Positions 143-17,957 of a DNA stretch of 18,079 bases are shown here, one piece after another. The translations under genes were made by a program, and so were the position numbers. The notes below the pieces were generated by a model. That model was given only the letters and a program-made list of their open reading frames with translations. It had not been told where the DNA came from and did no database searches. How positions within the stretch are numbered: the stretch's first letter is position 1; every line of letters begins with the position of its first letter. The stretch covers positions 1-18,079 of IMG/VR virus record IMGVR_UViG_3300045988_034844, one strand, 5' to 3'. This DNA is from a virus.

Positions 143-820
143 TTATGCGAATACGAGGTACCATGCTGATTTGTCGGCTGGGGCTAGTGCGACGTATCGG
201 GTTGCGCCGGAGCTGCCGGTATAGTGTGCCCAAATGTATCCGTCTGCGATTACGCCACCTTCGGCGAGGTTGACGGTTTGGCCGTAGTGATACTGTGCGA
301 CTACCTGTGCTGAGGTGGATGGTGCCGATCGCACGTTGAGCACGTCGACGTTGACCTTGTAGGTGCGTGGGATAATGGTTACATTATTGTTGTTTGGTGC
401 TGGGGCTGGCGTGGTTGCCGTGCGTGGGTGGAAGTATCCGATGATTCCGGCCTTGCTGAGTGTGACGTATCCGGCCTTGTTTGGGTTTTGGCTCATGGTG
501 TTGAGCGTGCCGTTGCCATTGTCTCGTACTACGATGGCGACATGGTTCATGCCGTTTCCGTTCCAGAATGCCACATCACCATATGCGGGGGTGTAGTTGC
601 CTGCTTCGCGGGTGAAAGCGTTTTGCAATGCTTGGGAGCGATCGTATCGTGTAGTGTAGACGCTTGCGGCGTATCCGTCTACGGTGTTGGTGTCGGCGGC
701 TGGAATGCCGTATACGTTTCGAGCGTATGAACTCCATAAGTCCCAGCATTGCCCGCCATATGCACCGTCCATGTCTACGACTTTGCCGTTAACGTTGTTC
801 ATCCATTCTTGAATATTCAT
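143..820 (-). CDS. Endolysin with an N-terminal CHAP amidase/peptidase domain and a C-terminal SH3b cell-wall-binding domain (225 aa)
   Basis: CHAP signatures are present: GAYGGQCWDLW contains the catalytic Cys, and NHVAIV the His. The C-terminal YKVNVDVLNVRSAPS...GYIWAHY is SH3b-like. I chose the ATG at 820 (MNIQEW) because it follows AAGGAA and sits 1 nt after the holin stop. The longer track ORF starting at 868 would overlap the holin. Confidence 0.85.
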   Translation of the reverse strand: MNIQEWMNNVNGKVVDMDGAYGGQCWDLWSSYARNVYGIPAADTNTVDGYAASVYTTRYDRSQALQNAFTREAGNYTPAYGDVAFWNGNGMNHVAIVVRDNGNGTLNTMSQNPNKAGYVTLSKAGIIGYFHPRTATTPAPAPNNNNVTIIPRTYKVNVDVLNVRSAPSTSAQVVAQYHYGQTVNLAEGGVIADGYIWAHYTGSSGATRYVALAPADKSAWYLVFA

Positions 821-1193: not shown

Positions 1194-1205
1194 AGATATT
1201 ACCTC

Positions 1206-2273
1206 CTATTTTCCTAACAGTTCGCCGATAATCGATCCAAAATCGGCTTTTACCTGCGAATCGTCGAATCTGATTTTACCAAGTCGGTAGCCGGTGGTGA
1301 GTCTTCGTATGATATCGTCTGATTTTTTGACATACCATGTTTTTTCGTCAACATGATTGGGGTCTAACGTATAGATAGGGCGAGTATTGTCCTTCGGGAT
1401 ACGACGTGAAACATATTGCGAAACGTGCCCGTCACGTTCGGACACGGAAACCCATATGCCGAAACGAGCATAGTCGGTAGTGTCTAGAATGTATGATAGT
1501 TCGCCGTCTGTAGGAATGGGGGCTAGCAGCGTGTCGGATTCGTCACGGAATTTATTGCGTATTGCATAATCCGCATAGTCGCCGTCGTACTGCTCTAGAA
1601 ATCTGCCGAACTTGGATTTTGCGACTTTCGCGCTGAATCCGCCGTAATCAGCCAATTCCAAGCACACGAACCCCCCGCAATAGAGTTTGTATTGTTGCTG
1701 ATTCGCTTGCTGTGCGCCAATGTCCAAACGGTATTTCGCAAAATAAGGATTAGCCTTTTGCACTGCGTTGGACAAAAACAGTACTTTTGTTCTGTCCTGC
1801 CAACGATCAACGGTGTTGTAAAACTCAGAAAACGAGTTTACCTCATTGCTGAGGAAGCGTAGGTTGTCTGGAAATATTTCGTCGAAAATAATCAAGTGCA
1901 CTTTAGGGTAGGCTACCGATTTTAGCCCGCCTGCTTGGGAGAGTGCGACGAAGTAGCAGCATGTGCGCCAATCTTTTTCATCCCACGAAGTCTTATGCAC
2001 CTGTCCCTTTTCGCCATTCACCCGAAACTCGTAGGATGGAAAGAATTCTTGAATGTCTTTGAAGAAGGTTTCTTTGCGGTGTTGTTCCACGTCCGTTCGA
2101 CGTAGGTAGATGAACTCATATCCGTGCTTGAGATATTCTTTGATGCCGTATCGTTTTGCGGCGAACGTTTTGCCTAGTCCACGTGCGCCGATAATGAAAT
2201 TCCACGGCGCGTTACGGGTGAGCAGATTATGCAAGTCGTAGTAATCATCTTCGGCCAATGTCTGTAATGCCAT
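1206..2273 (-). CDS. DNA encapsidation ATPase (phi29 gp16-like, 355 aa)
   Basis: Walker A is NFIIGARGLGKT, compared with phi29 NFVIGARGIGKS from memory. YEFIYLRR, Walker B LIIFDEI and FLSNAV..ANPYF also match my memory of gp16. I chose the ATG at 2273, which is preceded by GGAGGTGAGCGC. The track start at 2360 lies inside a hairpin/promoter region. Confidence 0.9.
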   Translation of the reverse strand: MALQTLAEDDYYDLHNLLTRNAPWNFIIGARGLGKTFAAKRYGIKEYLKHGYEFIYLRRTDVEQHRKETFFKDIQEFFPSYEFRVNGEKGQVHKTSWDEKDWRTCCYFVALSQAGGLKSVAYPKVHLIIFDEIFPDNLRFLSNEVNSFSEFYNTVDRWQDRTKVLFLSNAVQKANPYFAKYRLDIGAQQANQQQYKLYCGGFVCLELADYGGFSAKVAKSKFGRFLEQYDGDYADYAIRNKFRDESDTLLAPIPTDGELSYILDTTDYARFGIWVSVSERDGHVSQYVSRRIPKDNTRPIYTLDPNHVDEKTWYVKKSDDIIRRLTTGYRLGKIRFDDSQVKADFGSIIGELLGK

Positions 2274-2295
2274 GCGCTCACCTCCATTATAAATA

Positions 2296-2335
2296 ATGGG
2301 GAGTATGACGTCATAACCACCGTCATACTCCCCAT
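2296..2335 (-). promoter_or_regulatory. 15-bp perfect hairpin in the leader of the ATPase gene (attenuator/terminator or 5' stabiliser)
   Basis: atggggagtatgacg (2296..2310) pairs perfectly with cgtcatactccccat (2321..2335) around a 10-nt loop. On the minus strand it is followed by UAUUUAUAAU, then GGAGG and the ATG. Confidence 0.6.
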
Positions 2336-2388
2336 CTGTCTGTGGTATTAGTCGGCTCAAGGGAAGTCATCACATGCCGACATGTCCT

Positions 2389-2397: not shown

Positions 2398-2402
2398 CAC
2401 GT

Positions 2403-3644: not shown

Positions 3645-3661
3645 ATGTGTGGCTAACGTCG

Positions 3662-5749: not shown

Positions 5750-5783
5750 AAAATCCTCCAATCTGTCTCAAATCAAGTATACT

Positions 5784-6596
5784 CTAATGGCCGAGATTGT
5801 AGGCGAGACTCGTGCTGTAGAGTTGCGGTACGTTGGTCATGTTGTCACCGCTACCCCACATGCCCATAAAAAGATCTTCCAGCGAGTTGATTACCATCAT
5901 GTCGATATTAAGCATGGTGTTACGCCAGTCGAGCAGCAATTGTGATTGTGACCCGCTGGTGCCGAGCGTATGCGACACGCTATTGCCCTTATCGGAAGAA
6001 TGCGCATAGTCGGTATTGCTGGTGGAAGTCGCCGTGGCGGTGCTGTCCTGCTGAGTGCTGGTATGCGTATTGCCGGTCGAGTCGGTCTGTGACGCGGTGG
6101 TGGCGTATTTGCGGAAATCGTCAATACGGGTCTGCGGAAACTCGCTATTAAACGTCATGCTGGAATTGTCCGCCTTAGTGTCGGACGTGCTGTTCGCGGT
6201 GGACTCGTTGGATTGCGTGCCCGAAGATTTGCCCGAAGATTCGTTAATGCTGGTTGAGTCCATCTCCTGCCGAATGTCGGACGTGATGAAAGGGTCGAAT
6301 TTACGTTGCGCGGAAACGTACAGCTGATTAAAATAGTCCATTTGTTCGCGCATGGTACGCCCCAAATAAAATACGAACATTTGCGGCGTTTCACTACCAA
6401 TTTCGCGTAATGCGTAGTGGGCTACGATTTTCTCATTCAATTTCGCCCTATAGTTTTCGTCGAAAATCGGATAATATTGTGCGCTCAAGTGTAGTTTTTC
6501 GTCCGTATTGAAACCACGGTCGATCAGATTACCTAAGGTCAACGTATAGTCCGCCATACTGTCTTTGACGGCGTACATGCTCAAGTCCTGTGTCAT
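5784..6596 (-). CDS. Lower collar protein (phi29 gp11-like, 270 aa) with a Ser/Thr-rich insertion
   Basis: The N-terminal YYPIFDENYRAKLNEKIVAHYALREIGSETP...YFNQLY pattern is typical of lower collar proteins of phi29-like and 44AHJD-like phages, from memory. The gene follows the portal directly with a TAATG overlap. GGAGGAGG lies upstream. Confidence 0.75.
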   Translation of the reverse strand: MTQDLSMYAVKDSMADYTLTLGNLIDRGFNTDEKLHLSAQYYPIFDENYRAKLNEKIVAHYALREIGSETPQMFVFYLGRTMREQMDYFNQLYVSAQRKFDPFITSDIRQEMDSTSINESSGKSSGTQSNESTANSTSDTKADNSSMTFNSEFPQTRIDDFRKYATTASQTDSTGNTHTSTQQDSTATATSTSNTDYAHSSDKGNSVSHTLGTSGSQSQLLLDWRNTMLNIDMMVINSLEDLFMGMWGSGDNMTNVPQLYSTSLAYNLGH

Positions 6597-7534
6597 TATT
6601 CCTCCTCCTTGGTTCCGTCAACGTCCAATAGTCCGCCGGACGTAGTGTCGTTCCATTCGATGCCGATAGGGTATCCCGAGTCGGCCATTTGCGGCCATAG
6701 TCGGTTGATCGTATCGCATGCCTGCTGCCTTGCTTTGAGATAGCTTAGTCGGAACACGTTCGTGCGCGAATTGCCTGCCGTCACTTCGCTTTCAAGCAAT
6801 CGTTCTTTTTTTTCGGTGGTGCTGTTATCGATACCTAGATAGTTGACTAATTCGTTCCAAATCTGCGTTTTCGTCGTGATAATCTTATCAGCCAAAAAGG
6901 GGGTGACGTTGGGGAATGTCTGGAACATGCCGGTAATGTCAGCCGAGTCGTATGTGTAAATATAGGGGTCGCCGTCTTCGCGCGCCTTCATAAGATTTTG
7001 CGCGGTGAGCTTGTTGGTTTCGGACGTGGCGATAATCAACGGCACACTAATGTTGTCCAAATTTACGTCCAGTGCTCGGTCTGCGATGGCGAGTCGTGTC
7101 GCATAATTCCACATCACATCAATCATGGTGCACCTGAGCTGATTATCCCAAATGGGTACGCATTCCTTGCTTCCGATCTGCGGGTGCGAATAGCTGGTAG
7201 CAACCGGCTGGAAGCTGGTTGGATTATTGTAGTTATTGACACCGCCAATGTTGCCGGAAGTGACCATAAAACGGTTGACCCCCTTGCGTTTATCGGGGAA
7301 AAACAGCGCGAGACCGTTTTCAAATAAAGTCAGTTCCAAATATCTTTCGTCAATGTACGGCGGGAGGTTAATCCATTTAAAGCGACTTACGGCCAGCATT
7401 TCGATCAATTTCATATACTGGTTGATTCGTAAGCTTTGCCTCATTTCGGGGAGGTTCAGATTGCCCCACATCGAACCCAAGACGCTCTGATTGTCCCAAT
7501 GCGCGGCCTTGCGAGCATTATTGCGTTTACCCAT
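6596..7534 (-). CDS. Portal / upper collar connector (phi29 gp10-like, 312 aa)
   Basis: [23 protein letters not shown] corresponds to phi29 [49 protein letters not shown] corresponds to [26 protein letters not shown]. Both comparisons are from memory. The start is either the ATG at 7534 or the GTG at 7540. Confidence 0.9.
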   Translation of the reverse strand: [312 protein letters not shown]

Positions 7535-7546
7535 AATCACCGTCCT

Positions 7547-7584
7547 AAAAATAATGGAGAGAGTTAATATGCTCTCTCCATTAT
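7547..7584 (-). terminator. Intrinsic terminator between the tail knob and portal genes
   Basis: The 13-bp perfect stem is 7551..7563 with 7572..7584, around an 8-nt loop. On the minus strand it is followed by UUUUAGG. It begins 7 nt after the knob stop and ends 12 nt before the portal ATG. Confidence 0.7.
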
Positions 7585-7590
7585 ATCCAA

Positions 7591-9831
7591 TCAGTACGAG
7601 ATACCGGCCAGTGGCACATTGTCCGCATAGTCGGTGACGCCGATCTTATCGGGGTCAGTCCATACGGTCACGCCGGACTCAAAAATACCCTTGACGGTCA
7701 GACGGTATTCTTCTGGGCATGTGCTCGAACGTACATACAACTCATGGAGCCTCCAATATGTGAAATTACTCATGGCCATGAGGTTCGCTGGAAGTTTCAT
7801 AAACCGCTGCACGTAATATCCGTACCTTAACCACACCTCACCGATGGCTTGCATGGCTGCTGGTGGTATCTGCCGGTAACGCACCATGACACCAATCAAC
7901 CCGTTAGCAAGATTGAAAGCGTCACCGCCCAACGCGCCCGACGTGGTAGGGGGTACTGTTTGGGTCTGTTGCACTTGGGCGTTGATGCCGGCGATGGTGT
8001 TTTCGTAATCGCCTTGCGCGGTGGCCTGTGCAAGCTGTTTGTTCATGTCGGCCAGCTGCATGGTCTGCTGGTTGCTGAGGTTGGTTTGCGCAAGCGAGTA
8101 GGCGTTGGCTTGTGAGGTGGTTGCGGCGTTGGTGGTAAAAGTGTTCGAAAGCGCTTGCGAATTGGACGAAACGCTATTGTCGTATGATTGTTGGTTTGCC
8201 CATGCGCCGATGGCGGTTCCTGCGATAGTGCCCACCGCACCCCCCACATTGCCGGTTGCGAGAGAGCCGATAGCGTTCGCGGCACCCGAGCCTACCGTGT
8301 TGATCTGGTTCATGCGATTGCTGAAACTCAGGTTTTTCAGCGCTAGGTCGGAAGACATTTGAGCGCTTTGATTGTTGATCGCCATCATGGCGTTACGGTT
8401 CGCGGTGCCGAGCTTGTTTTGCTCGCTCGCATACTGCGTGCCGACTTGTGACTGAGCGTAGGCATTGTTGATGCCCATCTGGGTTTTCTGATACCCCCAG
8501 TCCGCGCTTTGCTGTGCGTACTGGCGCATGTAGGCACTGTTCGCAAGCGCTAGAGCACTGCCGTTGTTGACGGCCATGAACGTTGGGAAATTGGTGATGC
8601 CAAAACTCGCGTTGAGCATTTCGCCCGTATCGATGGGCAATCCTTTGCCGTCCGGCAATGGTTGGCGATCACCGAGATTGCCGGCATGATATCCTCGCGC
8701 GTAAAAATTCAAACGTGGGGACGGGGGCGCATAATTCCATGTCTCCCTGATAATCAGATCGGCAGACGGAATCTGTTCAGGCTCATACGTAATCACCGTG
8801 CCATTCAAGCAACTGCACTCAACGTAAGCGTAGGGGGCGGTAAGGAATTTCTTCAAATATTTATATCGTTCGGGCAAAGTGAAAGCGTCGCGGAAATTTT
8901 TGAGGTTGACAATATCCGTGTAGCGTGCGTTGGAATTGTCGTTTCGCTTGCGTAATTCCCAACAATTTCCGGTAAAGCTGACTGAATGGCCGAACAGTTC
9001 CGTTTTTTTCGGCTGACCGTCAAGCAAGGCTTGCGGCAGATGTGGTACGGCATAGATACCGCAAATGCCTTGCGTGACCCATGGGGCATTCATGCCCTCA
9101 GTGAAAAATGTGACAATATCGGCGGGAGTGTCCAAATAGTACATGCTGGTACCGTTGAGCTGGCTTTCGAAAGCGCTACCGGTGGCGGTGTTGACTACCG
9201 GATTATCCTTGGTGCCCGTGTCCGCTTCAAGATCGGTGGTGCTTACGATGATAAGTCCGTAGGATGTGTATTTTACCCCGTCGCGTTCGCCCACGTCCAT
9301 CAATGGTTTCCATAATTCGTTGGTGAGTACGGTGCATTTGCCCGTGTCCAGTCCTTCGGGAAGGTCGAGATAGGTTTTCCCCCAGTCTTTCCATGCGTTT
9401 TTGTTGGCAACCCCCACATGCCCCCTTTCAACATAAGCGTTGCCCAACTGGATATCGTGCTGAAAACTCTGCCACACGTCCAGCTGGATATTGAGCTGTG
9501 TAGTGTTGGCATTGATATAGTCGCACGTCTGGACAAAATAATACCAACTGCGGGGGGTATCAAAATCGTAGTCATTCGTTGCGATCAGATAATTATATTG
9601 CGACGCTTGCGCGAATGGTACCGGCAACCTCACCGGCAAGCCGTACTTGGCCATAGTGCAGTCGGTAAACTCGATGCCGTCCAAACGGTCGAAATACTCT
9701 TTTTGAGACTGTCTATCCCATTTGACAATATCCCTATACCCCATATCCCACGGGACATTACACAATTTAAATCGAGTGTTCGGCGTCCATTTCGCGTACG
9801 AGAAATTAATCGGTAGGTCATTTGCGCTCAT
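7591..9831 (-). CDS. Tail knob protein (phi29 gp9-like, 746 aa)
   Basis: The N-terminal block YNYLIATNDYDFDTPRSWYYFVQTCDYINANTTQLNIQLDVWQSF...AYVERGH parallels my memory of gp9 ([45 protein letters not shown]...FIVREH). There is a Q/N/S/A-rich central region with a Gly/Ala hydrophobic segment. AGGAGG sits 5 nt before the ATG. Confidence 0.85.
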   Translation of the reverse strand: MSANDLPINFSYAKWTPNTRFKLCNVPWDMGYRDIVKWDRQSQKEYFDRLDGIEFTDCTMAKYGLPVRLPVPFAQASQYNYLIATNDYDFDTPRSWYYFVQTCDYINANTTQLNIQLDVWQSFQHDIQLGNAYVERGHVGVANKNAWKDWGKTYLDLPEGLDTGKCTVLTNELWKPLMDVGERDGVKYTSYGLIIVSTTDLEADTGTKDNPVVNTATGSAFESQLNGTSMYYLDTPADIVTFFTEGMNAPWVTQGICGIYAVPHLPQALLDGQPKKTELFGHSVSFTGNCWELRKRNDNSNARYTDIVNLKNFRDAFTLPERYKYLKKFLTAPYAYVECSCLNGTVITYEPEQIPSADLIIRETWNYAPPSPRLNFYARGYHAGNLGDRQPLPDGKGLPIDTGEMLNASFGITNFPTFMAVNNGSALALANSAYMRQYAQQSADWGYQKTQMGINNAYAQSQVGTQYASEQNKLGTANRNAMMAINNQSAQMSSDLALKNLSFSNRMNQINTVGSGAANAIGSLATGNVGGAVGTIAGTAIGAWANQQSYDNSVSSNSQALSNTFTTNAATTSQANAYSLAQTNLSNQQTMQLADMNKQLAQATAQGDYENTIAGINAQVQQTQTVPPTTSGALGGDAFNLANGLIGVMVRYRQIPPAAMQAIGEVWLRYGYYVQRFMKLPANLMAMSNFTYWRLHELYVRSSTCPEEYRLTVKGIFESGVTVWTDPDKIGVTDYADNVPLAGISY

Positions 9832-9842
9832 AAAATCCTCCT

Positions 9843-9882
9843 AAAAAACAATAGGTGCGAGAATTATCCTCTCGCACCTATT
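9843..9882 (-). terminator. Intrinsic terminator between the major capsid and tail knob genes
   Basis: The 13-bp perfect stem is aataggtgcgaga (9850..9862) with tctcgcacctatt (9870..9882), around a 7-nt loop. On the minus strand it is followed by GUUUUUU and then AGGAGG. Confidence 0.8.
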
Positions 9883-9902
9883 TTACCTGCTATCGCCTAA
9901 TG

Positions 9903-11618
9903 TCAGGCGGTGACGGTGATCTGCGCCGTCCCCTTCGCTCCTGCAAACTTTACAGTGACGTTGGCCGCTCCTTCGCCGGTTCCGGTCAATACGCCGTTAG
10001 GGGCGATAGTCGCATGCTGGTCTACTGACCACATGGCGAGATTGGTCACGTCCGCGGTGTTACCGTCCGTCTTGGTGGCAATGGCCTTGAGCGCGATATG
10101 CTCGTTAACCTTGACCGCCTTTTCGCCCTGAATTTCAATGGATTCGATGGCTCCCGTCTTCCAGCCGCCAAGCCAAGCGCCGACAACCGGCACGCTCAGT
10201 GCTGCGGAAACCGTCTGGTCGATTTCGGGGTGGGCTGGGTCGATGTAGGTTGCCTGAGCGGTGACCTTGAGGATTTCGGCGGTTTCGTCGAGACCGCAGC
10301 GCAGAATACCCCCGTTGTCGATCGAAGTGAACTGTGAGGTCGCACCTTCGACGGCATACTTGATGCCGACTGGCTGGAAGCTTGCCGTGTCCTTGTTGGC
10401 GCTTGTGATCTCAGACTCGACTTGTACCAAGTCACCGCGAGACACGTTCTTGGGGGTAACCGATGGCTGACCATATTTCATTACACGCAAAGTGAACTTT
10501 GGCGTGGATGTGGTGAGCGTATCCGGCAACGTCACGGACTCAGAGGAGCCTTCGCCCGTCCAAAACAGCACGGCATTTGCAAACGGGTTAGGGGTGATGG
10601 AGCCGCGGTGCTTATAGAAAATGTTCCGCGTGCCGTCAATCGGATTGACGGGGGAGTTCGTCGTTTCGAGCATTTCATCCCAGCAAAAGAAGAAATCTTC
10701 GGTGGTCAGCACGGCCTGAACCTTGCCACCGGCACCACCGATACCGAACATATCCTCCGGAATCGGAATGATACGATACGGCACATTGACCTTATCAATG
10801 TTAAATGCTGCGGCCAATGCTTCCACGTTGAGCGCTGCGATCACCTGTGGCGTGGCGAAGAGGATTGCCTCCGAATCTCGCCATGGAGTGACCCAGCTCA
10901 TGGCGTTATATCGCGGCATGGCCGACATTGGAGACGCCTTGAGCTCGTTCGCGGTCTGCTGAATAAGTCGCAAAAGATTCTTGGCGTCCGCTTCAGTGGA
11001 GTCAGCCGCGCCAACGTCCTTGGTGTGGACTCGATAGAAACCGCCCTTACGAGCATACTCAGCGAAACACTGAGTCTTCATCAGGTACATATCATTACGG
11101 TCAGACAAGATCGGCGCGTTCATGATTTCCGCGATATAATCCGCCATGCCGGACTCGCCGTCGAACGCCGTCAGCAAAGCGTCTTCAGGAATGGTGACCG
11201 GATAGTAGTGGTCGAACGTTAGGGGGTGGAATACGGAAGCAGTCGGCAGCGAGTAACGCCCGTACACATCGTCCCCGAGATACTCTTTGTTAAAATTACG
11301 GGTGCGTGCCTTGACCAAGCCAACCGCGGCCTGCTCGTACGTGCTGCCGTAACGCTTCAGGGTGCGTGGGGAGCCAATCAGCTTCAAGGGGTCATCCCAG
11401 TCTGCGTGCTGAATGTACAGGCCGATCAAACGCTGGATAAGTACCCCCGTGAATTCGTCGCGCAAGTACGGGAAATTGCGCATGGTATCCACCGCATTGC
11501 GGATATTACCCTGTGTCGCAGCCGGGATGCGCACCTGAAACTGGGGGGAAGTGGCGTTGCGGACGGCGTTGAAAATCTCAACGTCACCCTTACCGGCCAA
11601 CGGTCGAATATTAGACAT
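9903..11618 (-). CDS. Major capsid protein with C-terminal bacterial Ig-like (Big_2-type) domain(s) (571 aa)
   Basis: The gene sits directly after the scaffold gene. Its length and architecture resemble phi29 gp8. The last ~85 aa (IEIQGEKAVKVNEHIALKAIATKTDGNTADVTNLAMWSVD...ANVTVKFAGAKGTAQITVTA) form a typical Big_2 pattern. A second Ig-like stretch lies upstream of it. AGGAG lies upstream. Confidence 0.85.
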   Translation of the reverse strand: MSNIRPLAGKGDVEIFNAVRNATSPQFQVRIPAATQGNIRNAVDTMRNFPYLRDEFTGVLIQRLIGLYIQHADWDDPLKLIGSPRTLKRYGSTYEQAAVGLVKARTRNFNKEYLGDDVYGRYSLPTASVFHPLTFDHYYPVTIPEDALLTAFDGESGMADYIAEIMNAPILSDRNDMYLMKTQCFAEYARKGGFYRVHTKDVGAADSTEADAKNLLRLIQQTANELKASPMSAMPRYNAMSWVTPWRDSEAILFATPQVIAALNVEALAAAFNIDKVNVPYRIIPIPEDMFGIGGAGGKVQAVLTTEDFFFCWDEMLETTNSPVNPIDGTRNIFYKHRGSITPNPFANAVLFWTGEGSSESVTLPDTLTTSTPKFTLRVMKYGQPSVTPKNVSRGDLVQVESEITSANKDTASFQPVGIKYAVEGATSQFTSIDNGGILRCGLDETAEILKVTAQATYIDPAHPEIDQTVSAALSVPVVGAWLGGWKTGAIESIEIQGEKAVKVNEHIALKAIATKTDGNTADVTNLAMWSVDQHATIAPNGVLTGTGEGAANVTVKFAGAKGTAQITVTA

Positions 11619-11638
11619 TATATATATCTCCTAACTAT

Positions 11639-11920
11639 TTAGTCGAACAAATCTTCGATTGACTCGCTATCATTGTCACCGTCATTATCATTGTCGGACG
11701 GGGCGGGGTCAGTGTACCCGAGGGTATCCATCATGGCCTTAAGCGCGGCCAATTCCTTTTCGATCGAATCAAGTCGCGCGCTCACGTCCGGTTCGGACGG
11801 TTCCGGTTCCTGCTCAGGCTCTTTCGGCTTGATTTCATCATCGACGGTTTCAGTCCGCTTCTCTTCTTCGGTAGGCGGCGGGGTAGTGTTTTCGTCGCTC
11901 TCACTGTTTGGGTCTGACAT
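11639..11920 (-). CDS. Putative scaffolding protein (93 aa, extremely acidic)
   Basis: It is the first gene of the late operon, immediately upstream of the capsid gene as phi29 gp7 is. It has Asp/Glu/Pro-rich tails flanking a helical core (RLDSIEKELAALKAMMDTL). GAGGAG sits 6 nt before the ATG. Confidence 0.65.
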   Translation of the reverse strand: MSDPNSESDENTTPPPTEEEKRTETVDDEIKPKEPEQEPEPSEPDVSARLDSIEKELAALKAMMDTLGYTDPAPSDNDNDGDNDSESIEDLFD

Positions 11921-11955
11921 GCAAGCTCCTCACGATAGGCAATATTTCCACCAAA

Positions 11956-11964
11956 ATTATATCA
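11956..11964 (-). promoter_or_regulatory. Late promoter, extended -10 TGATATAAT
   Basis: The minus strand reads TGATATAAT, 36 nt upstream of the scaffold ATG and directly downstream of the early terminator. No -35 match is present; the hexamer at 17-bp spacing is CATTTT. Confidence 0.6.
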
Positions 11965-11971
11965 TACGGCG

Positions 11972-12007
11972 GGAAAATAAAATGACCCCCGCAATCACGC
12001 GGGGGTC
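11972..12007 (-). terminator. Rho-independent terminator ending the early/replication transcripts
   Basis: The 9-bp GC-rich perfect stem is GACCCCCGC / GCGGGGGUC (11984..11992 with 11999..12007), around a 6-nt loop. On the minus strand it is followed by AUUUUAUUUU. Confidence 0.85.
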
Positions 12008-12143
12008 TGACTGTCCTATCAGAGCGCAAAAGTGATGATCGTAGGGCACTACCGCCACGATAGTGATTCCATGGCCGGCGGCATTCTCAGCCGTGGCAAT
12101 CCAGCCTATGTTGCTCCCAGTCGAAAATCGACGCTCACAAGAC
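11972..12143 (-). ncRNA. Candidate ~170-nt structured non-coding RNA (possible pRNA analogue)
   Basis: This is the largest internal non-coding gap in a tightly packed genome. It is bounded by an extended -10 element (12150..12158) and the intrinsic terminator (11972..12007). There is no SD-preceded ORF. Several helices are visible by eye. See the findings for detail. Confidence 0.4.
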
Positions 12144-12149
12144 ACAACT

Positions 12150-12158
12150 ATTATAGCA
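12150..12158 (-). promoter_or_regulatory. Extended -10 element TGCTATAAT overlapping the DNA polymerase stop codon
   Basis: The minus strand reads TGCTATAAT, and the polymerase TAA stop forms part of the TATAAT. The same 9-mer occurs at 14759..14767 and 17902..17910. Confidence 0.45.
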
Positions 12159-13602
12159 TGACCAATGTACTGTAATCATCCATGACTTGCACGCCATGTC
12201 GAAACTGCTCGTAAGGGATGGGCTGCGAAAACATGCTTCCGGCCATGCAGATATCAACGCCCCCATCATCCTTCCACCCTTGATATCGGTTCATTCCGAG
12301 TATGGTCAGTTTTTCGTACCTGGCTGCGATCTTCCATTTGCCCAATTCGGTAGGGTGGATTTCGCATGAGTCTACCGGCTCCCAGCCGGATAGGATGCAC
12401 CCGTCCGTATTGGCATACAGCAATCGGCCAGAATTGGCGTAACAAACGTCCATGAGTTTGCGACGGGCATAGGCATTGACCCATACGGGCACGGGAAGAA
12501 AATCGGTTTTCAGATTCGATTCCTCTCTCTGTGCGATATCCCAGTCCAAGGCGATACCGTCTTTGGAGAGGGGGAGCATGACGGCACCTTTGGGTAGACT
12601 CGCCATTTTGCCTACGAGCGCGTTCATGACCAATTTTGCCATTTGCCGCTTCTCGCCCGTCGCCTTCTGCTTCAAGTCCCCCCATTCATCGACAAACGAT
12701 CGGAAAAACCCCTTGCTTTGCCGGAACTTCCACCCCCTAACATGCCTGTATACGCTCACTTCGTAATTCTCATAGAGCAGTTTTTGGTCAATGTCAGTCA
12801 ATACTCTTGTAACATACCCCCTTGTGCTGGTGAGTCGATTGAGTCCATACACGCTACGATTATCTAATAAAAAGGGGTATCCGTCCGGTTTGAGTTCCGC
12901 ACGAAACGTAAGTTCATCGCAATGCAACGGCATGTCATCATCCTGTTCATACTCGCCGTCATACGGTTCGGGTAGCCCCCATGGCAACCATTCATCTCGT
13001 AATATGCTCGGGTACATGCTATTGCAGTCAACGTCGATGGCCTTACCGTATGTCCCCTCTTTAGCCACCATAAATCCGCCGATATAGGCGTCATGCAATG
13101 ATTTTTTGGTTTCGGGCTTCAGTTGTGGGAATTTGTCGTAATACCATTCCCACTCGCCGGACACGAACGCCTCCATACTCGCCCCACCGGCAGTGATCTT
13201 GCACAGGCCGTGCCGATCGTATTCGCACAAAATGTTGAGCAGCTGAGCATCAGTCATGGTAAGCTTGCAGTTTTCGCGCAGCAAATTCGATACGTCGAAA
13301 AAGCGTGCGGAATTCTCACGGTCAATACGCACCGTAAAACTAAAAAACTTGCCCTTTTTGGAAACGATAGCATCCCAGCTCAAATTCGAATTGTGTTCGC
13401 TGTGGGGAAGTGAATGTACGACATGCGCTATAAACGGGTCGAGTAGATCGGGGCTTGTCATGTAGACGGTGAGTTTGCCGCCCGTCATGATGGACGCCAA
13501 AAGGCGATTGGGTTGAATGACATCACGTAGCACGGTGCCGTCCGTGCAGCGTATGACGTTATCCATACACCATAATCCAACTCTATTGTCATGCACTGTC
13601 AT
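12151..13602 (-). CDS. Protein-primed family-B DNA polymerase (phi29 gp2-like, 483 aa)
   Basis: Motif A is DCNSMYPS, motif B KLVMNALVGK, motif C YANTDG. Long colinear similarity to my memory of phi29 includes ITAGG, AYIGGF, LPWGLPEPYDGEY..DMPLHC, FRSFVDEWGDLK and ELGKW. I chose the ATG at 13602 after AAGGGAAG. The track's GTG start at 13662 overlaps the upstream gene by 31 nt and has no SD. Confidence 0.9.
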   Translation of the reverse strand: MTVHDNRVGLWCMDNVIRCTDGTVLRDVIQPNRLLASIMTGGKLTVYMTSPDLLDPFIAHVVHSLPHSEHNSNLSWDAIVSKKGKFFSFTVRIDRENSARFFDVSNLLRENCKLTMTDAQLLNILCEYDRHGLCKITAGGASMEAFVSGEWEWYYDKFPQLKPETKKSLHDAYIGGFMVAKEGTYGKAIDVDCNSMYPSILRDEWLPWGLPEPYDGEYEQDDDMPLHCDELTFRAELKPDGYPFLLDNRSVYGLNRLTSTRGYVTRVLTDIDQKLLYENYEVSVYRHVRGWKFRQSKGFFRSFVDEWGDLKQKATGEKRQMAKLVMNALVGKMASLPKGAVMLPLSKDGIALDWDIAQREESNLKTDFLPVPVWVNAYARRKLMDVCYANSGRLLYANTDGCILSGWEPVDSCEIHPTELGKWKIAARYEKLTILGMNRYQGWKDDGGVDICMAGSMFSQPIPYEQFRHGVQVMDDYSTLVML

Positions 13603-13631
13603 AGTATAACTTCCCTTTGCACCTATGGTGG

Positions 13632-14687
13632 TTATGCTAGTGCCGCTGCTTCCGCCAGCCACCTGTCAAACTGCCGCCGCGAACGCCAGTATCCCTCATT
13701 GTTGCCGCGGAATACCGAGCGAAACCTATGGTGGGTAGGGTCATAATCCGTCCAGTCAAAAACAATGCGGGGAGCGTCCGTCATTTCAATGAACGCGCGT
13801 TTTTGCGCGGCGGTCAGACTACGGAACTGCTTGAGTCGTTTTGAGCCGAGCGTGGTAGCCAAGATTTTTTCGAACACTTCGTAGCGCCCGCGACTCATAT
13901 AGGACGGCCACTCGTGCTCGCCGTACAGGTCTTCACTCTTTTTACCCATCCCCTGTTTTTTAGACTTGCGTTTCTGTTCGGTGCGCAATCCTAATATTTC
14001 GGCTGCGTCATGCATTTGCTCAAGCAGCTCGTTACGCCGTCCGCTCTCCAATTGGGAGCGCACGAATGCTTCGTCACTCAGCACGTTCGTCATCTGCAAA
14101 AAATCAGTGAGCTTTGACGGGATGATCTGAGTGCGCCCGAAACCCTCACCGGTAGTGCCGGTGATTTCGGCCACGCGCTGATCGTACACGCTGCGTTGTG
14201 GCATGGCCTGTTCTCGGTTCCATTCGTTGATTTTCCGTCGTGCCGCATTGATTTTCCGTTGTTGCTGCCGTAAGAGTTTGCGTCGTTTCGCCACGGGTTC
14301 CGCTTCTATCTGAGCATTCGTGATGGGCGTGCGTTGGGCAAACATAATGTCTTTTTTCGTCGGCTTCTCCACGGCGGTGGCATGGTATGGCGTGCTTTTC
14401 GCTGCCGCTATGGTCTGTTTCTTCTGCCGCTCCCACTCTTTGCCTAAGGTTTTGGCGATATTGACCAATTGTTTGTCGGCGGTTTTTGCGAGATTCGTGT
14501 GAGAGTATGTGCCAAGTTTGCTAATGTTGCGGGCGGCACGTGCTTCCGCAGCCTGTCTTGCCTTGACGTGCTTGCGTGCCTTGCTGTCCGCCTTGATGGC
14601 TACCGTGCCAATACCGGTATTGCTGGCATGAGGAGTGTAGTGTTGACTTGCGACTGCTCGGGATGATTTTCTTTTCTTACGTGACAT
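13632..14687 (-). CDS. Putative terminal protein (351 aa, highly basic)
   Basis: It lies immediately upstream of the protein-primed polymerase, as phi29 gene 3 does. It has Lys/Arg clusters (SRKKRKSSR, KRRKLLRQQQRKINAARRK, KRKSKKQGMGKK). The genome has ITRs. I cannot assert sequence-level similarity to known terminal proteins. Confidence 0.55.
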   Translation of the reverse strand: MSRKKRKSSRAVASQHYTPHASNTGIGTVAIKADSKARKHVKARQAAEARAARNISKLGTYSHTNLAKTADKQLVNIAKTLGKEWERQKKQTIAAAKSTPYHATAVEKPTKKDIMFAQRTPITNAQIEAEPVAKRRKLLRQQQRKINAARRKINEWNREQAMPQRSVYDQRVAEITGTTGEGFGRTQIIPSKLTDFLQMTNVLSDEAFVRSQLESGRRNELLEQMHDAAEILGLRTEQKRKSKKQGMGKKSEDLYGEHEWPSYMSRGRYEVFEKILATTLGSKRLKQFRSLTAAQKRAFIEMTDAPRIVFDWTDYDPTHHRFRSVFRGNNEGYWRSRRQFDRWLAEAAALA

Positions 14688-14706
14688 GTGCAGTCCTTAA
14701 GATGGC

Positions 14707-14732
14707 GAGAGCACCCAAGATTGGGTGCTCTC
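14707..14732 (-). promoter_or_regulatory. 11-bp hairpin in the leader of the terminal-protein gene
   Basis: gagagcaccca (14707..14717) pairs perfectly with tgggtgctctc (14722..14732) around a 4-nt loop. It sits between the TGCTATAAT element and the AAGGA SD. No U-tract follows. Confidence 0.55.
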
Positions 14733-14758
14733 TATGTGTGAACGAACGCTACTTAACG

Positions 14759-14767
14759 ATTATAGCA
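14759..14767 (-). promoter_or_regulatory. Extended -10 element TGCTATAAT upstream of the terminal protein and polymerase genes
   Basis: The minus strand reads TGCTATAAT, 3 nt after the stop of the SSB-like gene. Confidence 0.5.
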
Positions 14768-14770
14768 AGT

Positions 14771-15208
14771 TCACTTCGCCTCTTCGCCGCCCACCGGCTC
14801 AATGCTGAAAAACTTGAAGCCACGACGGGAACGACGTTCCACCACCTTGATAGCAAGCGGTGCCTCCCAAGTGTTCGGCGTTCCGAAGATGCCGAACATG
14901 GTGTTCAATCCAGCTGCGAGAGTGGGGGAGGTGGCCGCATACGCCTTATTATCGTCGGTTACGATGATGACGCGCACGGTGTTGGAGATTTCGCCCGTCT
15001 GATCGTCCGTCACCTGTACGGCCTGTGCGACGGCATTCACCATGTTCAGCGTTTCGTTCAAATGTTCATCAAGCTTTTCGGCATTCTGCAATGCCGAGTA
15101 GAGCTTGATCTTACCTTCGCGGGTGGAAGTGTCGATGAAATGCTGGACGGTGCCGAGTTCGGTGCTTTCGGTGTTGAATGCGACGAGTGCGGTGTTGGTG
15201 TTTTCCAT
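14771..15208 (-). CDS. Putative single-stranded DNA-binding protein (145 aa)
   Basis: The position matches phi29 gene 5, upstream of the terminal protein. The segment VRVIIVTDDNKAYAATSPTLAAGLNTMFGIFGTPNTWEAPLAIKVVERRSRRGFKFFSIE resembles my recollection of the lactococcal phage p2 ORF34-type Phage_SSB family. I could not verify this by search. AAGGGAAGG lies upstream. Confidence 0.45.
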   Translation of the reverse strand: MENTNTALVAFNTESTELGTVQHFIDTSTREGKIKLYSALQNAEKLDEHLNETLNMVNAVAQAVQVTDDQTGEISNTVRVIIVTDDNKAYAATSPTLAAGLNTMFGIFGTPNTWEAPLAIKVVERRSRRGFKFFSIEPVGGEEAK

Positions 15209-15268
15209 GATATTACCTTCCCTTATAATGTTGTTGTTATTTTGTTTTTAGGCTTATGCCTAAAATCT

Positions 15269-15277
15269 TTTATATCA
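15269..15277 (-). promoter_or_regulatory. Weak extended -10-like element TGATATAAA
   Basis: The minus strand reads TGATATAAA. Its TGA is the stop codon of the 104-aa gene. The hexamer is imperfect, and an AT-rich hairpin starts only 3 nt downstream. Confidence 0.25.
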
Positions 15278-15589
15278 CATGCCGTCATTATTTTCAATGT
15301 CGGCGTGTCGTTTTGTATGTTCTTCGGGGTCCCATTCTTTCGGCTCCTCAAAAGTCGCATACTTGTAAAAAGTTTCCTCATTCATGGAAACTTTTTGCGA
15401 AAAAATATTAATGGAACGTGGAATGAAGTTCGGAAACAGTTTCTTCGCGCGAATCGAATAGGAGCGCGCGTCCTTAAGTCGCCCGTCAATGACATGCTCG
15501 GCTTCCATAAAGTCACCGTCCACTAATTCCATGCCCTTGAGCACGGCATACACTCTCGTACGAAAAATGTCGGTTTTGGTTCTAGCCAA
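15275..15589 (-). CDS. Early protein (104 aa), possible p6-like dsDNA-binding replication accessory protein
   Basis: The TTG start is preceded by GGGAGG at a 5-nt spacing. Its length, acidic C-terminus (EEPKEWDPEEH..DIENNDG), position two genes upstream of the terminal protein, and a loose pattern (VDGD..E, AKK, EETFYKYAT) recall my memory of phi29 p6. The sequence evidence is weak. Confidence 0.6.
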   Translation of the reverse strand: MARTKTDIFRTRVYAVLKGMELVDGDFMEAEHVIDGRLKDARSYSIRAKKLFPNFIPRSINIFSQKVSMNEETFYKYATFEEPKEWDPEEHTKRHADIENNDGM

Positions 15590-15591
15590 CT

Positions 15592-16110
15592 TTACCTCCC
15601 TTGTAATAAGATTTTTTGCAATTCAATGTCATTATACCGTGTCGTGTCCAGTCTGTCAAAATTTTTAAACACGGCAATAATGAGATTTTGAGCTTGTGGA
15701 CTATCAAAGATCGTGCAGCAATCATATGACGTGCACCCTTTGACGGCGCAGACGGCACACCATGCGATCAGGTTAGGCGGGTTGACGGTACCGTCCAAGT
15801 ATTCCACATCATACACACGGGATAGGGCGGCGGAAAAACCGTCCGATATGGTCATGCTTCCGCAAATCTGCGATACGACAATTATTGCCTGTGTAAACCA
15901 TGGACTAGCCCCGTCGCGCCACAATTCGCATAGCATGGTAACCGCACGACAACATGTCTCAAAATCGCCATACCCCTTATCATAGCGTTTCAGATTCAGG
16001 TCACGTTTTCGGCCTTTCGTAGCCTTGGTGATACGGGGTGATTCCATGATCGCGTCATCAAACCGGCGCATGCGATAGATTGGTGTCCTATCGTTGCCAC
16101 GGTTAAACAT
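15592..16110 (-). CDS. Early hypothetical protein, Cys-rich (172 aa; 186 aa if started at 16152)
   Basis: The long ORF has 11 Cys residues, including two CC pairs. The ATG at 16110 overlaps the stop of the 58-aa ORF (ATGTTTAA). The alternative ATG at 16152 lacks a good SD. No family is recognised. Confidence 0.65.
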   Translation of the reverse strand: MFNRGNDRTPIYRMRRFDDAIMESPRITKATKGRKRDLNLKRYDKGYGDFETCCRAVTMLCELWRDGASPWFTQAIIVVSQICGSMTISDGFSAALSRVYDVEYLDGTVNPPNLIAWCAVCAVKGCTSYDCCTIFDSPQAQNLIIAVFKNFDRLDTTRYNDIELQKILLQGR

Positions 16111-16279
16111 AATAGCGCCTTTCGACCCTGAAGTATGCAATGTTGCGTACATGTGTGGGTACTGCCGCCCACTTGCGAATCAGCTCGGCGGCTTTATCGT
16201 ATGACGTGGCATACCCCACTTCGATAGGGGGTTTATCGCCATGCTTCAAATATGCCAGTGCAACAAATGTCTCATACAT
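16103..16279 (-). CDS. Small early ORF (58 aa), absent from the ORF track
   Basis: My hand translation gives MYETFVALAYLKHGDKPPIEVGYATSYDKAAELIRKWAAVPTHVRNIAYFRVERRYYV. It starts 2 nt after the upstream stop and fills an otherwise 129-nt gap in a tightly packed operon. The only SD-like element is GAGGAA, 14 nt upstream. Confidence 0.4.
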   Translation of the reverse strand: MYETFVALAYLKHGDKPPIEVGYATSYDKAAELIRKWAAVPTHVRNIAYFRVERRYYV

Positions 16280-16281
16280 GA

Positions 16282-16470
16282 TTAAAATTCCAATTCCTCA
16301 GATTCAGCGCCAAATTGCCACATATCATGCCATAGTTGGAAGTCGGGACACCGTTTCGGCATACCCTGTTTGCGTTTCATTCCCGCCCAAAATGCTCTCA
16401 GCCGCCAATACGTATCAGCATAAGGACAATCCCTACAGACCCAAGAATGCAACCAACCACGAAAATACAT
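16282..16470 (-). CDS. Early hypothetical protein, Trp/Cys-rich (62 aa)
   Basis: The ATG at 16470 is preceded by AGGGA at a 6-nt spacing. The track's TTG start at 16476 overlaps the upstream stop. It contains a CxxC pair plus a third Cys, and 6 Trp. Confidence 0.55.
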   Translation of the reverse strand: MYFRGWLHSWVCRDCPYADTYWRLRAFWAGMKRKQGMPKRCPDFQLWHDMWQFGAESEELEF

Positions 16471-16472
16471 GA

Positions 16473-16718
16473 TCAATCCCTATCCAACAATGGCGTGCGC
16501 GCGATATCGATAGCGTCCAGCACGAGAGCCGCGACCTGAGCGCTATCACTTGCACTATATGAGGTCAATGCAGTAGCCGAACACAGCCCGTCCGGCGAGT
16601 AAAACGCTATATCATATCTCAATTCGTACGAAGAGGAATGCGGGCAATACCACAATTCAACCTCACCTCCAAGGTGTTGAGAGGAAAACGTAGCAACTTT
16701 CATATCACAATAAGCCAT
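16473..16718 (-). CDS. Early hypothetical protein (81 aa)
   Basis: The ATG is preceded by AAAGG at an 8-nt spacing. It begins 1 nt after the stop of the upstream small membrane ORF. No family is recognised. Confidence 0.6.
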   Translation of the reverse strand: MAYCDMKVATFSSQHLGGEVELWYCPHSSSYELRYDIAFYSPDGLCSATALTSYSASDSAQVAALVLDAIDIARTPLLDRD

Positions 16719-16719
16719 T

Positions 16720-16887
16720 TCAAAAACCTTTCATGACAAAAATCAAAACCATAGCCACACTTACCGCAAGCATGACCAAAAAACAAAACGTGTCACGCCA
16801 GTCACGCGGCAGTTCGCAAAACACCGTAGCAGCCATCGTGAGAAACAGTACGGAGAGCACGCAGACGGCAACAATCATGCCAACCAT
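16720..16887 (-). CDS. Small early membrane protein (55 aa, two predicted TM helices), absent from the ORF track
   Basis: My hand translation gives MVGMIVAVCVLSVLFLTMAATVFCELPRDWRDTFCFLVMLAVSVAMVLIFVMKGF. GAGGTGG sits 4 nt upstream of the ATG. The ORF exactly fills the gap between flanking genes. Confidence 0.55.
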   Translation of the reverse strand: MVGMIVAVCVLSVLFLTMAATVFCELPRDWRDTFCFLVMLAVSVAMVLIFVMKGF

Positions 16888-16896
16888 TATACCACC

Positions 16897-17154
16897 TCAG
16901 AACACATGAAAATCTCTGTAAAAATGCCTAAAATCATAATTGCGGCAGTACTCAATACCGTCGTCCAAGTCGATAAAATCCGCGATCTTGTCATACTTGC
17001 CACAGAGTCCACAATACAGTTGGAATTGGTAATCAACCCCGCTCGGACCGCTAAAATCACATGGCGCTCCACGCCAGCGAAACTTCTGATATATTCCAAG
17101 ATACTCGTCAAGGACATTAAAATAATGCCATTTCACAATATGACCTCCAATCAT
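16897..17154 (-). CDS. Early hypothetical protein with four Cys residues (possible zinc ribbon, 85 aa)
   Basis: An ATGA start/stop overlap joins it to the upstream gene. An internal GGAGG followed by GTG offers an alternative start 6 codons in. It contains a CGLC pair plus two flanking Cys. I preferred it over the overlapping 76-aa frame, which has no SD. Confidence 0.5.
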   Translation of the reverse strand: MIGGHIVKWHYFNVLDEYLGIYQKFRWRGAPCDFSGPSGVDYQFQLYCGLCGKYDKIADFIDLDDGIEYCRNYDFRHFYRDFHVF

Positions 17155-17384: not shown

Positions 17385-17385
17385 A

Positions 17386-17625: not shown

Positions 17626-17639
17626 TTATTTACCTCCAA

Positions 17640-17870: not shown

Positions 17871-17901
17871 TTTATTTACCTCCCTTGTGATTGATATTTT
17901 T

Positions 17902-17910
17902 ATTATAGCA
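17902..17910 (-). promoter_or_regulatory. Early promoter, extended -10 TGCTATAAT
   Basis: The minus strand reads TGCTATAAT, 32 nt upstream of the first early ATG and just inside the right ITR boundary. The -35 is poor. Confidence 0.55.
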
Positions 17911-17957
17911 TAAACAAAACGACAACACGCCGTAAAAAACAAACGACATACAAAACC

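Follow-up and report, generated by a model that had tools for sequence, protein, structure and literature searches.

What does a phi29-like Bifidobacterium phage encode in the unannotated interval that separates its DNA polymerase gene from the late operon? The question concerns the IMG/VR record IMGVR_UViG_3300045988_034844, positions 1 to 18,079, analysed over its full length of 18,079 bp (hereafter, the window) and representing the complete linear genome of a phi29-like Bifidobacterium podophage. A reading of the letters made without database searches (the sequence-only reading) had put forward a structured RNA of about 170 nt with transcription of its own at this site, as a possible analogue of the packaging or prohead RNA (pRNA) of phage phi29. 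Our comparative analysis identifies the locus as a minus-strand structure that acts at the RNA level, neither a protein gene nor a DNA element. A separate small transcription unit for a non-coding RNA of ~169 nt, made up of a 131-nt core and a 3' terminator hairpin, is the best explanation of its sequence signals. The first part of the proposal thus receives strong support from promoter enrichment, a covarying terminator, recurrence in all relatives tested and compensatory base changes. The second part is supported by the covariation-derived fold, the placement of two complementary tetrads and profile matches of the partner proteins, and we consider it probable that the window RNA serves as a pRNA-type packaging RNA.

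The region was recovered from cultured and metagenomic relatives. Bifidobacterium phage BP1 (PQ571273) shares 99.3% identity with the window over the region, and the B. dentium phages BD811P1-3 share 72-74%. All of these are cultured phages with cultured hosts, B. pseudocatenulatum U19 for BP1 and B. dentium DA811 for BD811P1-3, and their four GenBank isolate records display a gap of ~230 nt at the RNA locus with no feature annotated. A search of IMG/VR with the polymerase returned 80 loci (polymerase identity 65-99%), and 91 distinct copies were obtained when the IMG/VR loci, GenBank records and pattern matches were pooled. Forty-five representatives served to build a covariance model (R1), which produced exactly one match per source in 94 of 94 sources, mostly at 116-151 bits. 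In the most distant polymerase relative, locus L200, R1 scored 90 bits where blastn found nothing. Locus L211 and the metagenome contigs L258, L287 and L347 were added later, these three contigs being the only family members in a metagenome scan with CGGCTGARAAYGCCGCC, whose 120 loci were otherwise nearly all chance environmental matches. Overall, the element was present in single copy and at the same place in 97 of the 97 relatives tested, with R1 scores of 90-151 bits and polymerase identity down to 65%.

Conservation across 93 distinct extended sequences averaged 0.84 in the core, compared with 0.80 at the 3' end of the polymerase gene, and fell sharply at the predicted 5' end and past the last pair. 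These edges indicate that the functional unit begins ~7 nt past the -10 element, at G 12143, and ends at the last pair, at 12013. The three codon positions of the polymerase gene scored 0.87, 0.93 and 0.59, whereas the core lacked any such phasing (0.84, 0.83 and 0.85). As described earlier, the sole open reading frame (ORF) of the interval is a GTG-initiated, 62-codon frame (11957..12145) without a Shine-Dalgarno sequence, which extends across both the terminator and the late promoter. This frame is not conserved in the relatives, where the longest ORF spans 18-69 codons, the core measures 128-133 nt and indels are not multiples of three. A small protein gene was rejected given the lack of codon periodicity and of a conserved frame, together with this spread in ORF length. 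A tRNA or tmRNA was also rejected, with ARAGORN reporting 0 genes. At the gathering score, no Rfam family matched in the whole window, and at E <= 10 with permissive filters the slice 11850..12300 (451 nt) returned sub-threshold matches driven by the terminator only (isrJ and leaders).

Base-pair covariation was evaluated in two alignments. In the model-based alignment (84 distinct sequences, including L200), 98.3% of 3609 pair cells were standard pairs, compared with 32-52% when the partners were slid, and double compensatory changes were observed in 22 of 43 pairs; none of 500 shuffles reached any measure. This alignment leans towards the structure. The MAFFT alignment agrees, with 97.6% of 4456 pair cells standard (35-51% after sliding the 3' partners by 1-3 columns), both-side changes in 19 of 49 pairs (155 cells) and 0 of 500 shuffles reaching any of five measures. 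Three positions are mostly G.U pairs, which on the plus strand would be A.C mismatches; it is therefore the minus-sense transcript that folds. The folding check advised by the sequence-only reading was also favourable, as the 172-nt stretch folded at -67.9 kcal/mol (z = -3.5), a value reached by 0 of 200 shuffles. For the core, the covariation-supported fold has -40.7 kcal/mol and the minimum-free-energy (MFE) fold -44.3 kcal/mol. The two differ in their interiors, and the single-sequence MFE interior, which disagrees with the covariation-supported fold, was not adopted.

The core is flanked by signals consistent with a transcription unit of its own. The extended -10 element TGCTATAAT and its identical 9-mers at 17902..17910 and 14759..14767 were found as predicted, and mean column identity across relatives is 0.955 in this element against 0.43 in the six bases after it. 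The minus strand holds all six copies of the more general motif TGNTATAAT in the window, each at the head of a gene block, while 0.68 copies are expected and 0 of 200 shuffles reach six; the enrichment of this promoter class is therefore ~9-fold and strand-specific. The distribution suggests that extended -10 promoters lacking a -35 element may transcribe the whole genome, the packaging ATPase gene probably belonging to its own late unit. At the other end, the terminator hairpin at 12007..11984 has the most stem pairs (10) and G-C pairs (8) among the 28 terminator-like sites listed, in line with its earlier description as the strongest of the genome. Its stem presents double compensatory changes in four of six counted pairs, including CG to UA in 23 and GC to CG in 24 sequences. 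Mean conservation is 0.82 in the terminator and only 0.53 in the 5-nt linker 12012..12008. From the extended -10 element and the covarying terminator, we infer transcription of a terminator-ended unit located past the early replication genes.

The covariation-supported fold consists of a long end-to-end helix leading to a three-way junction with two arms (Table 1). The long helix, comparable to the A helix of phi29 pRNA, comprises 20 pairs in five segments (positions 1-28 with 98-131), 99-100% paired, with double changes in P1a, P1b and P2. P3 is invariant, and compensatory changes were found in every other helix. In the outer part, the changes include GC to AU in 8-12 sequences, UA to CG, GUUUC/GAAAC in L211 and, for P1b, AAGUGU/AUACUU in L200, so that the closing helix GAGCGU/GCGCUC recognised by the sequence-only reading is borne out by compensation. 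The inner pairs are invariant in most relatives, and the divergent L200 and L211 carry double changes from A-U to G-C, U-A to C-G and C-G to U-A, with P2 reading GGCUG.../...UAGCC. A local hairpin suggested earlier, GUCGAUUUUCGAC (12120..12132), can form but was rejected, as it is displaced by P1b and P2. Its G covaries with position 12023, and the compensation in L200 and L211 involves the long-range partners.

Both arms are also supported by covariation. The C-like helix exhibits double compensatory changes in seven of nine pairs, its strands being UGAUGUUGG/CCAACGUCA in L200. It is extended, beyond a bulge confined to the 5' strand, by an E-like hairpin that is almost invariant, with one double change from GGC/GCC to GAC/GUC and a loop reading UGAGAAU or UGAAAAC. 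In the D-like stem, 99.8% of cells are paired and six of seven pairs have double compensatory changes; L200 has wholly replaced the stem (UAUGGG/CCCGUA), its loop keeping UGGU. The palindromes CCAUGG and GCCGGC, earlier offered as sites of intermolecular loop-loop pairing, are present in the sequence. As kissing sites they were rejected, since they are strands of the C helix and become CCGACC, GUG and others in the relatives.

Table 1. Coordinates of the RNA, its transcription signals, the partner genes and the junction gaps of other phages (window coordinates unless another phage is named; RNA position p = 12144 minus the window coordinate)
Feature	Position	Strand	Description
Core RNA	12143..12013	minus	131 nt; predicted 5' end G at 12143, 7 nt past the -10 element
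Predicted extended -10 promoter	12158..12150	minus	TGCTATAAT; overlaps DNA polymerase stop codon TAA 12153..12151; without a good -35
TGNTATAAT sites	17902-17910, 16886-16894, 14759-14767, 12150-12158, 11956-11964, 2389-2397	minus	
Outer A-type helix, 5' strand	12143..12139, 12136..12131	minus	GUCUU and GAGCGU; pair with 12013..12017 and 12022..12027
P1a	p 1-5 with 127-131		GUCUU/AGGAC
P1b	p 8-13 with 117-122		GAGCGU/GCGCUC
Inner A-type helix, 5' strand	12116..12129	minus	GAU 12129..12127, UCG 12124..12122, GGG 12118..12116; nearly invariant internal loops between
Inner A-type helix, 3' partners	12036..12034, 12041..12039, 12046..12044	minus	AUC, CGA and CCC, respectively
P2	p 15-17 with 108-110, 20-22 with 103-105		
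P3	p 26-28 with 98-100		GGG/CCC; followed by 5-nt junction
C-like helix, 5' strand	12101..12110	minus	CAU[A]GGCUGG; 9 bp, one A bulged; partner CCGGCCAUG 12078..12070
C-like helix	p 34-36 and 38-43 with 66-74		A37 bulged
Bulge	12094..12100 (p 44-50)	minus	AUUGCCA, 7 nt, 5' strand only; GCCA 12097..12094 is the proposed "right-hand" loop
E-like hairpin	12079..12093 (p 51-65)	minus	CGGC-UGAGAAU-GCCG; 4 bp, 7-nt loop; followed by 4-nt junction
D-like hairpin	12047..12065 (p 79-97)	minus	CACUAUC-GUGGC-GGUAGUG; 7 bp, 5-nt loop; UGGC 12057..12054 is the proposed "left-hand" loop
A-type helix, 3' strand	12013..12046	minus	CCC, CGA, AUC, GCGCUC, AGGAC; adjoins D hairpin directly
Intrinsic terminator	11974..12007	minus	stem-loop GACCCCCGCG-UGAU-UGCGGGGGUC at 12007..11984, then AUUUUAUUUU
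Late-operon promoter	11964..11956	minus	TGATATAAT; past the terminator; then Shine-Dalgarno GAGGAG and ATG at 11920
DNA polymerase, type B, organellar/viral kind (protein-primed-type)	12151..13662	minus	PF03175 DNA_pol_B_2, 92 bits
Upper collar/connector	6596..7540	minus	PF05352 Phage_connector GP10, 136 bits; PHROG
Packaging ATPase	1206..2360	minus	PF05894 Podovirus_Gp16, 151 bits, whole profile; PHROG
Junction gap, Fairywren (L350)	4079-4261		
Junction gap, Anjali (L351)	4993-5294		
Junction gap, Voltaire (L352)	4769-4930		
Junction gap, Av-1 (L207)	4471-4611		

The fold was compared with that of phi29 pRNA. The left end of phi29 was used as the Rfam control, in which the pRNA family RF00044 matched at 201..318 with 145.4 bits (threshold 100), and the consensus structure was taken from this match. 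At level 3, the abstract shape of the window RNA is identical to that of the phi29 Rfam consensus. The tree-edit distance between the two structures is 45, compared with 100 +/- 18 for the MFE folds of 1000 shuffles, none of which came as close, this null being a weak one. The dimensions of the junction domain also correspond. Each RNA has a 9-bp C helix (5+4 bp in phi29, 3+6 bp in the window RNA) in which one nucleotide of the 5' strand is bulged, followed by a larger bulge on the 5' strand only (9 nt in phi29, GAUUAAACC; 7 nt in the window RNA). Both have a 4-bp E helix, whose loop counts 6 nt in phi29 and 7 nt here, and in both the 3' strands of E and C are contiguous. The C-to-D junction measures 3 nt (UUU) in phi29 and 4 nt in the window RNA, and the D stem 6 and 7 bp, respectively, with a 5-nt D loop in each (UGGUU and GUGGC). 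The D hairpin abuts the 3' strand of the A helix with no spacer in either RNA. Several differences were also observed. The A-to-C junction is 1 nt in phi29 and 5 nt in the window RNA; several internal loops, nearly invariant, interrupt the A helix of the window RNA, whereas that of phi29 has a CCA bulge; and the 3' domain of the window RNA, unlike that of phi29, is the terminator hairpin only. The window RNA measures ~169 nt with a core of 131 nt, compared with 174 nt and ~118-120 nt in phi29, and has a G+C content of 55%, compared with 41%.

A further correspondence concerns two complementary tetrads, which in both RNAs occupy the final four positions of the bulge and of the D loop, respectively: AACC/GGUU in phi29 and GCCA/UGGC in the window RNA, the latter with three G-C pairs. 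The phi29 tetrads are the bases that pair between neighbouring pRNA molecules, which agrees with the Rfam consensus. Among the 84 distinct sequences, the tetrads form 4/4 pairs in 75 and 3/4 in 9, and 97.3% of cells are paired in this register, compared with 2-74% in other registers. The combinations observed were GCCA/UGGC (59), GCCA/UGGU (9), GCCU/UGGC (6), GCUA/UGGC (4), ACCA/UGGU (3), GCCA/CGGC (2) and GCCU/UGGU (1). An A at the first position of the bulge tetrad is always accompanied by a U in the loop, as found in BD811P2, L106/L113/L258, L200 and L347 (ACCG/UGGU). Their co-occurrence gives a Fisher p of 0.003 over the distinct sequences of alignment A4 (without L258 and L347), a figure that ignores phylogeny and reflects ~3-4 independent events. 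As the tetrads are otherwise nearly invariant, this covariation is suggestive, not conclusive. The sequence-only reading had drawn an 8-bp helix, UUGCCACG/CGUGGCGG, between 12092..12099 and 12052..12059. The complementarity holds, at 89-100% per pair in the relatives, and spans the bulge with the first E pairs on one side and the D loop with its closing pairs on the other. The outer bases are engaged in two other helices and the central tetrads are free, which points to a loop-loop contact and not to the ordinary helix first envisaged. Because all eight positions stay complementary, such a contact could exceed the 4 bp of phi29 provided that the E and D helices open at their ends.

The genomic context is likewise that of a phi29-type phage. 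Inverted terminal repeats of 122 nt (1-122 and 17958-18079), 99% complementary, lie at both ends of the window, which is consequently a complete linear genome of the protein-primed type. A terminator-like hairpin lies inside each repeat (97-125, plus strand; 17980-17958, minus strand). The major genes are all located on the minus strand. The window phage shares with phi29 the podophage type, a genome of ~18-19 kb, terminal repeats in inverted orientation and a DNA polymerase B of the protein-primed type, as well as a Gp16 ATPase and a GP10 connector; the last two homologues, called clear by the sequence-only reading, were confirmed by Pfam profiles (Table 1). The ATPase shares 28% identity with phi29 gp16 (tblastn, E = 4e-34), and a TGNTATAAT copy (2389-2397) sits just upstream of its gene. 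The lower collar and the major head protein were identified by PHROG and Pfam profiles. The N-terminus of the connector is basic (MGKRNNARKAAHW) and resembles the RNA-binding N-terminus of phi29 gp10. Profiles and terminal repeats together thus indicate a Gp16-type ATPase, a GP10-type connector and protein-primed replication in the same genome. Upstream of the polymerase gene, the ORF 13632..14687 (minus strand, 351 aa) has no PHROG or Pfam match and is called hypothetical in BP1; it occupies the position of the terminal protein in phi29-like phages, and no profile identifies a terminal protein.

In both phi29 and the window phage, the RNA gene lies 3' of the polymerase gene, shares its orientation, has a promoter of its own and finishes at a terminator. 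The earlier description of the phi29 arrangement needs one correction, in that ~800 nt of small genes separate the phi29 polymerase gene from the pRNA gene. The gene of the window RNA is internal, at the boundary between early and late genes, and that of phi29 is near the genome end. The hosts differ as well, the window phage infecting an actinobacterium and the phi29 pRNA family (phi29, PZA, B103/Nf/M2, SF5 and GA-1) belonging to Bacillus phages.

For phi29, pRNA has been described as a scaffold for assembly of the ATPase ring, with a domain that binds the prohead and an A-helix domain (PMC7823558, PMC8104870). By analogy, transcription of the window RNA would start at its own promoter, and early transcripts would probably carry it as their tail too. 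The three-way-junction domain would then fold, and the GCCA of one molecule would pair with the UGGC of the next. This bulge-to-loop pairing may close an RNA ring that encircles the prohead's GP10-type connector at its narrow end, with the junction-proximal domain binding the prohead. The long end-to-end helices would project outward and dock the Gp16-type ATPase subunits, and the motor, with the RNA as a putatively required component, would package the terminal-protein-linked genome. The RNA would be expected to depart once packaging is done.

Several observations weigh against this assignment. The Rfam pRNA model, which the sequence-only reading had recommended as a check, found nothing: RF00044 had no match in the whole window at the gathering score or in 11850..12300 at E <= 10. 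In the reverse direction, the best match of R1 on phi29 with filters off fell inside the pRNA gene, at 5.6 bits (E = 1.5) and mis-registered. Since both models fail across, homology with phi29 pRNA is not demonstrable, and the case for a pRNA-like identity of the window RNA is built on its architecture, its genomic context and the partner proteins. Three-way-junction RNAs are common, and the resemblance could have arisen by convergence or coincidence. The loop-loop covariation comes from one pair in three to four lineages, near-invariance of the tetrads is equally expected of a protein-binding site, the terminal A-U pair is mismatched in 9 of the 84 sequences, and the GCCA/UGGC pairing could be intramolecular, that is, a pseudoknot. 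A pRNA structure descriptor, implemented in Python with both RNAs in view, matched phi29 pRNA, the window RNA and the homologues L210, L347, L003 and L194, and missed L211, L287 and L258. It also gives ~0.6 matches per shuffled genome (36 kb), a rough estimate of specificity only, as the descriptor was written post hoc. In addition, the related BadAztec phages carry a different RNA at the site, where the descriptor had no match at the junction of either BadAztec1 or BadAargau2.

The leading alternative is a structured non-coding RNA acting in trans in some other role, such as sequestering or recruiting a host or phage protein, early/late regulation or countering a host defence, in which the pRNA shape would be coincidental or convergent and GCCA/UGGC a pseudoknot in cis. 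The absence of sequence or covariance-model similarity to pRNA agrees with this explanation. The most conserved parts of the RNA are unpaired or invariant motifs (GAUUUUCGACUGGG, CCCUACGA and the E loop UGAGAAU), as in a protein-binding site. The nearly invariant tetrads are compatible with it too, and a contact in cis between the 9-bp arm and the neighbouring 7-bp hairpin is plausible. Moreover, the phi29-like phage asccphi28 has been reported without evidence for a pRNA (PMC7823558). On the other hand, a different role would leave unexplained why the window RNA agrees with pRNA in every dimension of its junction domain and in where the two tetrads sit, and why the RNA co-occurs with Gp16 and GP10 homologues. 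It comes with no nameable target or partner, and the RNA has no conserved, extended single-stranded seed except for the loops that a pRNA also explains. We regard such a role as rather unlikely, while taking it seriously.

A cis element of the early operon is less likely still. The RNA would in this case be a structured 3' untranslated region with a terminator, insulating early from late transcription, protecting the polymerase mRNA from 3' exonucleases or exerting attenuator- or riboswitch-like control of read-through into the late genes. Its location at the exact early/late boundary and its end in the best terminator match are what such an element would have, early transcripts must read into the locus, and a closing helix, a three-way junction and a terminator form a riboswitch-like layout. 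A non-coding gap with a very strong terminator is also present at the junction in the actinobacterial phi29-like phages Fairywren, Anjali, Voltaire and Av-1. However, the RNA is directly preceded by a conserved promoter that belongs to one class with the other five, with the first paired base ~7 nt on, and the late operon has its own promoter past the terminator, so that read-through control is unneeded. Furthermore, the terminator stem is free to vary (CCCCG/CGGGG to CCCUC/GAGGG), and conservation of the linker is poor, as given above, while the 3' strand of the core is constant; this pattern leaves no conserved antiterminator alternative. A riboswitch or attenuator leader was accordingly rejected, there being no conserved alternative pairing with the terminator and the late genes having their own promoter. 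A mere stabiliser, in turn, needs no covarying three-way junction of 131 nt with invariant loops.

A small protein gene or chance helices in an ordinary spacer are hardly credible, as the 62-codon frame is present but crosses the terminator and the late promoter with no Shine-Dalgarno, conserved length or third-position relaxation, and chance is excluded by the covariation statistics.

A pRNA-type packaging RNA outside Bacillus has precedents in proposals for other phages. To current knowledge, pRNA is unique to phi29 and related Bacillus phages, and BD811P1 has been listed as phi29-like in a review that covers roughly 2,100 such genomes (PMC11476376). Apart from that review, full-text literature searches returned no paper tying pRNA to Bifidobacterium phages. 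According to other authors, pRNA covariance models fail beyond Bacillus phages, and Streptococcus phage Cp-1 has a putative packaging RNA that these models do not recognise (PMC6266182). Actinomyces phage Av-1 (DQ123818) carries a misc_RNA feature annotated as "packaging RNA" at 16295..16402, near the right genome end, which shares its position with ORFs B and C of the other strand and has no match to RF00044. The descriptor had no match anywhere in Cp-1, nor at the Av-1 site on the plus strand, the annotated one; a single weak match lies nearby on the opposite strand (16221-16104). The Cp-1 and Av-1 proposals resemble the window RNA in being non-Bacillus, based on predicted structure and unrecognised by pRNA models. 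Unlike the Av-1 feature, which overlaps ORFs, the window RNA is intergenic with promoter and terminator signals, and it has covariation from ~90 sequences. We know of no covariation support for either the Cp-1 or the Av-1 RNA.

Closer to the window, the B. asteroides phages BadAztec1 (L206, NC_048858; 12733-12851, minus strand) and BadAargau2 (L209; 449-567) contain a conserved structured RNA at the same junction of polymerase gene and late operon. As in the window, an extended -10 element, TGCTATAGT, overlaps the polymerase stop codon, and the outer helix reads (G)UGAGCG/CGCUCA(C). The lower part is rod-like with two compensatory pairs, and the 3' G+C-rich hairpin lacks a U-tract. There is no clear pair of bulge and loop tetrads; only two distinct sequences are available and RNAalifold leaves the interior undecided. 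With filters off, R1 found nothing at the syntenic sites of BadAztec1 and Av-1, and a search of IMG/VR with the BadAztec polymerase returned only the BadAztec phage itself. This RNA is probably a diverged homologue of the window RNA.

More broadly, the phi29-type prohead RNA may be old and widespread, having diverged beyond sequence recognition. In human-gut Bifidobacterium phages (the BP1/BD811P group and ~90 metagenomic relatives) this G+C-rich RNA would build a GCCA/UGGC ring on the prohead, and the junction RNAs of other actinobacterial phi29-like phages, with their different folds, would be variants of it. We hold this wider view tentatively, as possible but somewhat short of probable. 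To our knowledge, no RNA other than pRNA is known as a structural component of the motor that packages viral DNA. Now that a pRNA fold with covariation support is seen in phages whose hosts belong to another bacterial phylum, it becomes testable whether pRNA is ancestral to the whole phi29-like group or arose late in the Bacillus lineage. If the packaging role is true, the ring-forming three-way-junction scaffold used in RNA nanotechnology would have a second, independent sequence solution, the covariance model could be used to mark, in many genomes of gut phages, a gene that now lacks annotation, and the Rfam pRNA model would be too narrow for questions of presence or absence. Even if that role is wrong, the locus defines a new, well-supported family of phage non-coding RNA.

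Minor observations concern comparable gaps in other genomes. Fairywren, Anjali, Voltaire and Av-1 share an order of polymerase gene, small gene, non-coding gap of 140-300 nt ending in a very strong terminator hairpin, and late operon. The small gene is annotated as ribbon-helix-helix in Anjali and as hypothetical in Fairywren, Voltaire and Av-1. The Fairywren gap holds a TGCTATAGT motif, and the folds of these four gaps are single-sequence folds only. Finally, BP1 has a second unannotated gap of ~190 nt in its early region (17329-17521, corresponding to window ~16280-16472), where the window contains a TTG-initiated ORF of 64 codons (16282-16476, minus strand).

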